DNA of 64,000 bases, taken from the sequence record NC_004928.1; one strand, given 5' to 3'. The DNA is from Escherichia phage RB69. Under the pieces are notes generated by a model. The model worked only from the letters and a program-made list of their open reading frames with translations, was not told the DNA's origin and ran no database searches. The position numbers and the translations under genes were made by a program. Below, one piece after another: positions 16,688 through 18,996 of the stretch. Position 1 is the stretch's first letter; each line of letters opens with the position of its first letter.

Positions 16688-17263
16688 TTGTTATTTACAT
16701 TCTTCGACCCAATAGGATATAGTGCTAAAACCATTAATAAGAATGCACCTACTATTCCTATGACAGACATATTTCGTAACTATAAAGAGTACTTTAAACG
16801 TGTTGCGACCAACTATAGATTACAAACTTATTATATTAAAGGTTCTCCGCGTCCTGAAGAACTAGCAAACATAATTTATGGCAACCCTCAATTATACTGG
16901 GTCCTTTTGATGTGTAATGATAACTATGATCCGTATTATGGTTGGATCACATCTCAGGAAGCAGCGTATCAAGCTTCTATTCAGAAATATGCAAATGCCG
17001 GCGGAGACCAAATTCTTTATCATATTAACGAAAAACGCGAGAAATTTTATAACTTAGTTTCATATCCAGATGAGCCATTAGTATGGTATGATAAAGGCGA
17101 CAAAGCTCGTAAGTATCCGCAATATAAAGGACCTTTAGCTGCAGTAGATACTTATGAAGCGGCTGTACTAGATAACGAAAAACTTCGTAAAATAAAAATT
17201 GTTGCAAAGGAAGATATAAACTCGTTTATCACTGATTTGATTCGTGAGATGGAGATTGCATAA
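16688..17263 (+). CDS. 53: baseplate wedge protein gp53
   Basis: MLFTFFDPIGYSAKTINKNAPTIPMTDIFRNY... matches T4 gp53; apparent TTG start after GGAGA. Confidence 0.88.
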   Translation: MLFTFFDPIGYSAKTINKNAPTIPMTDIFRNYKEYFKRVATNYRLQTYYIKGSPRPEELANIIYGNPQLYWVLLMCNDNYDPYYGWITSQEAAYQASIQKYANAGGDQILYHINEKREKFYNLVSYPDEPLVWYDKGDKARKYPQYKGPLAAVDTYEAAVLDNEKLRKIKIVAKEDINSFITDLIREMEIA

Positions 17264-18996
17264 TGGAAATGATTAGTAGTAGCCTTAATTGGTTCGTTGG
17301 TGTTGTTGAAGACAGAATGGACCCATTGAAACAAGGGCGTGTTCGAGTACGAGTCGTAGGCCTGCATCCAGCACAGAGAGCACAAGGTGATGTACAAGGT
17401 ATTCCTACAGAAAAACTTCCATGGATGACTGTTATTCAACCTATTACATCTGCATCAATGTCGGGTATTGGTGGTTCTGTTACAGGCCCTGTTGAAGGAA
17501 CTCGAGTATATGGTCATTTCTTAGACAAATGGAAAACAAACGGTATTGTACTCGGTACATATGGTGGAATTGTACGCGAAAAGCCTAATAGACTCGAAGG
17601 TTTTTCCGACCCGACAGGTCAGTATCCGCGACGTTTAGGTAATGATACGAACGTATTAAACCAAGGTGGTGAAGCTGGCTATTATTCGAACTCTAACGTA
17701 ATTCAAGATAACAACTTAGATTATGGTATAAACCCAGATGATACAGATTTAGCAAATATTCCTGAAGATGATGACCCTAATTTTACAATAACAGAAATGT
17801 TACGTCGTGACGAAGGTCTTCGCGATAAAGTATATTGGGACCATCTAGGGTATCCTACAGTAGGTATTGGACACCTTATCGTAATGGAAAAGACCCGAGA
17901 CATGTCTCGAATTAATAAATTGTTATCCGATCAAGTAGGGCGTGAAGTAACAGGAAATCCCGGGACTATTACATTAGAAGAAGCAACAGCTCTATTTGAG
18001 AAGGACCTTGCTAAGATGCAGAAAGACATTCGTTCTAATTCTAAAGTAGGTCCTGTTTATGCTAAAATGAACAGGTCTCGCCAAATGGCATTAGAAAACA
18101 TGTGCTTCCAAATGGGCGTTGGCGGTGTAGCAAAATTCAATACTATGCTTAAAGCAATGGCCACAGGCGATTGGAAAACTGCATACAAATCTGGACGCGA
18201 TTCGTTATGGTTCCAACAGACTAAAGGGCGTGCTTCACGTGTAACAACAATTATTTTAACTGGTAACATGGAATCATATGGCGTTCCTGTTAAAACACCA
18301 CCTTCACCAGGAGTCGGTGCCGATTTAGTTACTAGAAATACCGATCCAGAAGACCCGGCTGGTCCTCCTGTTCCATTAGATTCACGTATCCTTTTTAAAG
18401 AACCGGAATCAAGTTATCGTGGTGAATACCCATATGTTCATGCTATGGAAACAGAAAGCGGTCATATCCAAGAGTTTGACGACACTCCAGGTAACGAACG
18501 TTATCGCTTAGTTCATCCAACAGGGTCATATGAGGAAGTTTCTCCGTCTGGTCGTCGCACTCGTAAAACTGTAGAAGACCTTTTTGACATCACTAATGGC
18601 GATGGGAATTTCCTGGTTTCTGGTGATAAACTTGTTAACGTTGGTGCTAACGAAATATATTATAACATGGCGGACCGCCTCCATCAAATAGATGGCAGCG
18701 ACACAATCTTTATTCGTGGCAACCAAGTTAAAACTGTTGAAGGTGATGGAACTCTTTACGTTAAGGGCAATATCAAAATAGTCGTTGACGGGAATGCAGA
18801 TATTCTTGTTAAAGGTGATGCTAAGTCTCAAGTTGAAGGGAATCATGACTATACTGTCAATGGTAATGTTAAATGGACTGTCAATGGTAATGTTGATATG
18901 ACTGTTGCTGGCAATTGGTCGGAGACAATGACTACAATGAGCTCAATAGCTTCAGGACAATATACTGTTGACGGATCTCGTATTGATATTGGGTAA
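17263..18996 (+). CDS. 5: baseplate hub / cell-puncturing protein gp5 with lysozyme domain
   Basis: 577 aa; N-terminus MEMISSSLNWFVGVVEDRMDPLKQGRVRVRV; internal lysozyme domain similar to e; C-terminal VxGxxxxx beta-helix repeats. Confidence 0.95.
   Translation: MEMISSSLNWFVGVVEDRMDPLKQGRVRVRVVGLHPAQRAQGDVQGIPTEKLPWMTVIQPITSASMSGIGGSVTGPVEGTRVYGHFLDKWKTNGIVLGTYGGIVREKPNRLEGFSDPTGQYPRRLGNDTNVLNQGGEAGYYSNSNVIQDNNLDYGINPDDTDLANIPEDDDPNFTITEMLRRDEGLRDKVYWDHLGYPTVGIGHLIVMEKTRDMSRINKLLSDQVGREVTGNPGTITLEEATALFEKDLAKMQKDIRSNSKVGPVYAKMNRSRQMALENMCFQMGVGGVAKFNTMLKAMATGDWKTAYKSGRDSLWFQQTKGRASRVTTIILTGNMESYGVPVKTPPSPGVGADLVTRNTDPEDPAGPPVPLDSRILFKEPESSYRGEYPYVHAMETESGHIQEFDDTPGNERYRLVHPTGSYEEVSPSGRRTRKTVEDLFDITNGDGNFLVSGDKLVNVGANEIYYNMADRLHQIDGSDTIFIRGNQVKTVEGDGTLYVKGNIKIVVDGNADILVKGDAKSQVEGNHDYTVNGNVKWTVNGNVDMTVAGNWSETMTTMSSIASGQYTVDGSRIDIG

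Follow-up and report, generated by a model that had tools for sequence, protein, structure and literature searches.

The window analysed here, the whole stretch of 64,000 nucleotides from Escherichia phage RB69 (sequence record NC_004928.1), belongs to the T4-like phages of the RB69 group (genus Mosigvirus) and carries gene 53 in an arrangement where it is divergent from gene 4 and lies directly upstream of gene 5 (Table 1). The same gene 4/53/5 order is also annotated in most of the relatives that we examined; the Aeromonas and Vibrio phages have another upstream neighbor at gene 53. Gene 4 is annotated at the same extent in Shigella phage Shf125875, mar005P1 and T2. A mechanical listing of open reading frames (ORFs) also yields a frame of 197 amino acids on the minus strand (16177-16770), which lengthens gene 4 by 48 codons too many, crosses the spacer and runs antisense to codons 1-27 of gene 53. 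At the other end of gene 53, the stop codon and the ATG of gene 5 overlap by 1 nt within TAATG (17261-17265), a configuration that suggests translational coupling of the two genes. T2 carries a small repEB (oriE) CDS within the beginning of its gene 5, on the other strand.

Table 1. Coordinates of genes and signals around the start of gene 53 in the window
Feature	Position	Strand	Evidence or remark
Gene 4, head completion protein	16177..16626	-	Pfam Tn7_TnsA-like_N, E 1.9e-20; start ATG 16626, Shine-Dalgarno AAGGAGGA
Late promoter box TATAAATA for gene 53, T4-type	16638..16645	+	Exact consensus match
Late promoter box TATAAATA for gene 4, divergent	16653..16660	-	Exact consensus match
Gene 53, baseplate wedge subunit	16688..17263	+	Pfam PF11246, T4 gp53 PDB chains, RefSeq NC_025437 same start
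First in-frame ATG of gene 53 (Met25)	16760..16762	+	Start in some annotations; rejected here as the start
Gene 5, baseplate hub and tail lysozyme	17263..18996	+	Pfam Gp5_OB, Phage_lysozyme, Gp5_C

The spacer between genes 4 and 53 is 61 nt long and holds two late promoter boxes, one per strand, which stand back to back with 7 nt between them. The plus-strand TATAAATA box, which includes the in-frame TAA found upstream of gene 53, falls in an alignment column that is conserved in T2 and most other genera, and the minus-strand box is conserved in relatives as ...TTATTTATA... in the aligned spacers. Such boxes occur 18 times in the window, compared to 8.7 expected by chance. Sigma-70 promoters were also considered, but between 16400 and 17400 their matches were no more numerous than in shuffled sequences, and the late-type boxes are the relevant signals.

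The reading frame of gene 53 is opened by a TTG codon at 16688-16690 on the plus strand and runs over 191 codons, for a product of 191 amino acids. Direct reading and the ORF listing agree on this start, which is the one given by the original prediction, and they also confirm that no in-frame ATG precedes it. Indeed, when all codons are read backwards from 16687 (ATT, ACT, GAG, AAG, TGG, TAT, TCA, ATT, CCA, ATA, TTT, TTA, TTA, GTA and ATA), a TAA is reached at 16640-16642, in agreement with the ORF boundary, and neither ATG, GTG nor TTG is met on the way; the TTG is therefore the first possible start in the frame. Upstream of it lies the Shine-Dalgarno sequence AAGGAG (16676-16681, plus strand), within which the GGAGA noticed earlier is located (16678-16682), followed by a 6-nt spacer, ACTATT, a distance to the TTG that lies within the 5-9 nt expected of a Shine-Dalgarno sequence. 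AAGGAG is identical across all Mosigvirus loci aligned. The base at position -1 is polymorphic, being T in the window and C in most relatives, and TTG is seen in both contexts. The in-frame ATT at 16685-16687 was considered as a rare start codon and rejected: it stands only 3 nt from the Shine-Dalgarno sequence, is replaced by ATC in most relatives, and belongs to a type of codon at which initiation amounts to 1-2% of that at AUG (bioRxiv 10.1101/063800).

The gene 53 leader of Mosigvirus genomes contains 14 nt more than that of T2 (window 16661-16675). These additional nucleotides include an inverted repeat, CCAAT-ttcat-ATTGG, that ends one base before the Shine-Dalgarno sequence and has a variable loop base (ttaat in Shf125875). 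The corresponding hairpin is absent from the minimum-free-energy fold of the leader, and this fold as a whole is non-significant. A regulatory RNA structure at the start of the gene was rejected, as the segment 16653-16740 folds at -10.5 kcal/mol with a z of -0.31, like shuffled sequences.

The product of gene 53 scores 303 bits against the Pfam family Phage_gp53 (PF11246), for which the cut-off is 21, and its residues 1-186 cover positions 1-199 of the 200 in the model. As predicted, the frame matches T4 gp53 from its very first residues: residues 1-189 align to residues 1-189 of the T4 protein (PDB 5hx2_F, E 5.9e-111; also 5iv5 and others). With such scores, chance is no concern. In most of the genera sampled, the homologous start codon is directly followed by a family N-terminal motif, (M)[LI]F[ST]FFDP[IV].Y, which is weaker in the most distant of the lineages sampled.

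We examined the conservation of the start codon by searching GenBank phage records with two 31-mers centred on it, one for each version of the -1 base. This length forces every 28-nt megablast seed to include the start codon. The set searched does not include the RB69 reference record (AY303349 / NC_004928). With TTG at their centre, the 31-mers matched 151 GenBank phage records, with an identity of at least 99% over the matched piece in 150 cases; when the TTG was replaced by ATG, GTG or CTG, no GenBank phage record was matched, a negative result for which the TTG search provides the positive control. Moreover, 151 is also the number of records that are at least 90% identical to the locus, that is, of Mosigvirus type. 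TTG thus appears to be fixed in the RB69-like clade as it is represented in GenBank. The comparison with relatives that the original prediction had called for consequently supports its first option, a genuine non-ATG start, and excludes its second, a base-call issue.

Alignment of the gene 4/53 spacer and first codons gives the same picture, with TTG in four Mosigvirus relatives where T2 has ATG. In IMG/VR, two contigs of the same type carry TTG and the Tequatrovirus contigs carry ATG. One of the two TTG contigs, 121,442 bp long, probably duplicates the phiE142 genome. Five further IMG/VR matches to the degenerate pattern were discarded as chance matches in unrelated contigs. Outside the clade, the homologous start codon is ATG in 16 loci from other T4-like lineages: T2, Karamvirus, Citrobacter phage Ursula, Gaprivervirus, Kanagawavirus, Jiaodavirus, Providencia phage PSTCR6, Pseudotevenvirus, Krischvirus, Biquartavirus, Chrysonvirus, Marfavirus, Muldoonvirus, Morganella phage vB_Mm5 and Schizotequatrovirus. 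It is GTG in two loci of Acinetobacter phages of the genus Lazarusvirus, Stupor and AB-Navy-v2 (positions 289-303 of loci L022 and L029), where gene 53 may thus have acquired a non-ATG start a second time, independently. The Lazarusvirus GTG is preceded by GGAGA, and an ambiguous in-frame ATG located 12 nt upstream overlaps that Shine-Dalgarno sequence; the Stupor and AB-Navy-v2 records annotate different gene 53 starts.

Over 801 nt around the site, the identity of the window is 98.1% with Escherichia phage ECO111 5-P, 94-96% with other Mosigvirus genomes and about 76% with phages of the T4/T2 type. On a larger scale, some 36 kb of the window are 97% identical to Shf125875. The two genomes are collinear, with 96-98% identity except in variable segments: gaps or low identity occur at about 8.6-10.1 kb and 12.4-13.1 kb, in the region of tRNAs and internal proteins (window positions ~8570-13090), as well as past about 48.9 kb, close to hoc.

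Which codon starts translation was assessed from the substitution pattern of the first codons. Between the window and T2, codons 2-24 have a pS of 0.86 and a pN of 0.11, hence a pN/pS of 0.127, and 14 of the 19 differences are at third positions. For codons 25-189 the pN/pS is 0.146, which is indistinguishable from that of codons 2-24. Purifying selection on the protein is thus as strong over the first codons as over the remainder of gene 53, which argues that translation starts at the TTG. We hold it as highly probable that gene 53 starts at a genuine UUG codon and that this initiation is driven by the Shine-Dalgarno sequence. The trait is lineage-specific and already known.

The following scheme would account for it. 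The late transcript probably begins a few bases downstream of the plus-strand box, given its match to the consensus, and from the behavior of T4 late promoters a start just past the in-frame TAA would give the mRNA a leader of some 35 nt devoid of ATG. On this transcript, AAGGAG would position the 30S subunit 6 nt upstream of the UUG, and the initiator fMet-tRNA would read this codon, such that gp53 is expected to begin with Met-Leu-Phe-Thr-Phe-Phe, as T4 gp53 does. The UUG itself most probably goes back to one A-to-T substitution in the first position of an ancestral ATG, a change that appears to be fixed among RB69-like phages. E. coli has three canonical start codons, of which UUG is one, used by about 3% of its genes; in E. 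coli reporters, these codons reach 10-100% of the level obtained with AUG and yield a Met N-terminus (bioRxiv 10.1101/063800). In view of this range, a modest drop is plausible, and gp53 synthesis per mRNA is probably somewhat lower than it would be with ATG.

Could this drop itself have been selected? The TTG would then be an adaptive down-tuning of gp53 output, selected in Mosigvirus to fit the stoichiometry of the baseplate. Such dosage tuning is conceivable since only six copies of gp53 are needed per tail in T4, where gp53 binding triggers wedge association (PMC3004832). Moreover, of the 67 CDSs that RefSeq annotates in the 50 kb of Shf125875 homologous to the window, 66 start with ATG and gene 53 is the only one with a non-ATG start, which makes its TTG a local rarity, and this TTG is invariant in 151 genomes despite a polymorphic neighbor at position -1. 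The GTG that Acinetobacter T4-like phages may use independently would, if its origin is indeed separate, hint at recurrent down-tuning of gene 53. The clade is shallow, however, with 94-98% identity at the locus, so that one invariant base is expected under neutrality and the invariance of the TTG is no proof of selection. Likewise, T2, and T4 if its ATG is correctly deduced, make the same six-copy protein from ATG, the Shine-Dalgarno sequence is neither stronger nor weaker than in the relatives that use ATG, and the predicted leader structure is non-significant, as its z of -0.31 indicates. On balance, we regard adaptive down-tuning as unlikely. Maintenance of the UUG by selection in the RB69-like lineage, as a throttle on gp53 dosage relative to the other wedge proteins and perhaps on gp5 dosage via the TAATG overlap, seems to us rather doubtful.

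A different proposal is that the upstream 24 codons are an untranslated leader and that the gene starts at its first in-frame ATG, Met25, to give a gp53 of 167 amino acids. This start owes its interest to annotation: it is used in at least one GenBank record (S143_2, MZ189261), and a proportion of records have no wedge-subunit CDS over the TTG. We sampled 60 TTG-bearing records, 54 of which are annotated. A wedge-subunit CDS covers the TTG in 37 of these 54; in ten, the only CDS over it is a 'head completion' or 'head closure' protein, in three it is a 'hypothetical protein', and in four there is nothing. Records without a wedge-subunit CDS over the TTG therefore amount to 14-17 out of 54, the range reflecting the three 'hypothetical protein' records, and 17 is the number that can be cited in favor of Met25. 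The properties of the locus speak against it. The ATG at 16760 has no Shine-Dalgarno-like sequence in front of it (nothing resembling GGAG in the 20 nt upstream, aagaatgcacctactattcctATG), whereas codons 2-24 evolve as coding sequence by both their pN/pS and their excess of third-position differences, and codons 1-24 encode the family N-terminal motif, aligned to residues 1-24 of T4 gp53 and to the Pfam model from position 1. In addition, the Met25 start is accompanied by a gene 4 ORF that is over-extended to 594 nt and crosses the two late promoter boxes, which has the look of an artefact of gene calling: in S143_2, gp53 from Met25 is paired with a 594-nt gene 4 CDS that matches the ORF 16177..16770. 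Several GenBank Mosigvirus records, S143_2 among them, combine the long form of gene 4 with a truncated gp53. Initiation at Met25 is thus, in our estimation, very improbable. The two starts predict distinct proteins: from the TTG, the N-terminal tryptic peptide would be MLFTFFDPIGYSAK and the mass about 22 kDa, and from Met25 the protein would begin MTDIFR and weigh about 19.6 kDa, both masses being estimated from chain length. The searchable literature yielded no Mosigvirus proteomic data, and neither N-terminal peptides nor ribosome profiling for any Mosigvirus gp53.

Finally, that faulty sequencing or assembly put a T at 16688 and so hides a true ATG, a prior suspicion fed by the ATG of T2 (and, by deduction, of T4), is next to impossible, as the 151 GenBank records come from many laboratories and hosts, none has ATG, GTG or CTG, and the TTG is present next to either T or C at position -1.

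A genuine UUG start of gene 53, the reading that we retain, is neither new nor mechanistically unusual, and is already both annotated and published. A CDS starting at the TTG is present in the records of Shf125875 (RefSeq NC_025437), mar005P1 (LR027386), phiE142 (KU255730) and phiC120 (KY703222). The phiC120 genome paper lists ORF 3 as starting with TTG, one of two TTG starts among 281 ORFs, with ATG used in 97.9% (PMC8022965); in the GenBank record KY703222, ORF 3 is a 576-nt baseplate wedge subunit gene that adjoins gene 5. The main value of our observation concerns annotation quality. By our sample, the start of gene 53 is mis-handled in roughly one quarter to one third of the Mosigvirus annotations deposited. 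The TTG leads to a recurrent mis-call, which removes 24 residues from gp53, adds 48 spurious codons to gene 4 across the promoter region, or does both. For cloning or engineering of Mosigvirus gp53, or structural work on its N-terminus, the TTG start should be used.

Compared with its closest known counterparts, the gene 53 of T4 and T2 (PDB 5hx2, 5iv5, 5iv7), the gene studied here encodes a protein of about 84% identity that is collinear from residue 1, and occupies the same place between the divergent gene 4 and gene 5, with a TATAAATA box upstream in both cases. It differs in its start codon, TTG in place of the ATG seen in T2, in Tequatrovirus IMG/VR contigs and, by deduction, in T4; in a C-terminus that is 5 residues shorter than that of T4/T2 gp53; and in its overlap with gene 5, 1 nt as opposed to 17 nt in T2. 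The other Mosigvirus genes (Shf125875 NC_025437, phiC120 KY703222, mar005P1, JS09 and phiE142) share the TTG and the AAGGAG, and encode proteins of 191 amino acids that are 95-99.5% identical to that of the window, with only single-base polymorphisms such as that of the -1 base. The closest protein is that of phiE142, at 99.5% identity. This phage has a genome of 121 kb and is classified as 'Carettavirus', and in its annotation gene 5 begins 54 nt beyond the stop codon of gene 53, without overlap. Mosigvirus genomes are about 169 kb long. The start of gene 53 presents no mechanistic difference from canonical bacterial UUG initiation: a Shine-Dalgarno sequence stands at the standard distance, the UUG opens a conserved frame, and the N-terminus is expected to be fMet. 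Biologically, it is nothing out of the ordinary, a canonical alternative start codon that is used in one lineage and is simply rare in the genome.
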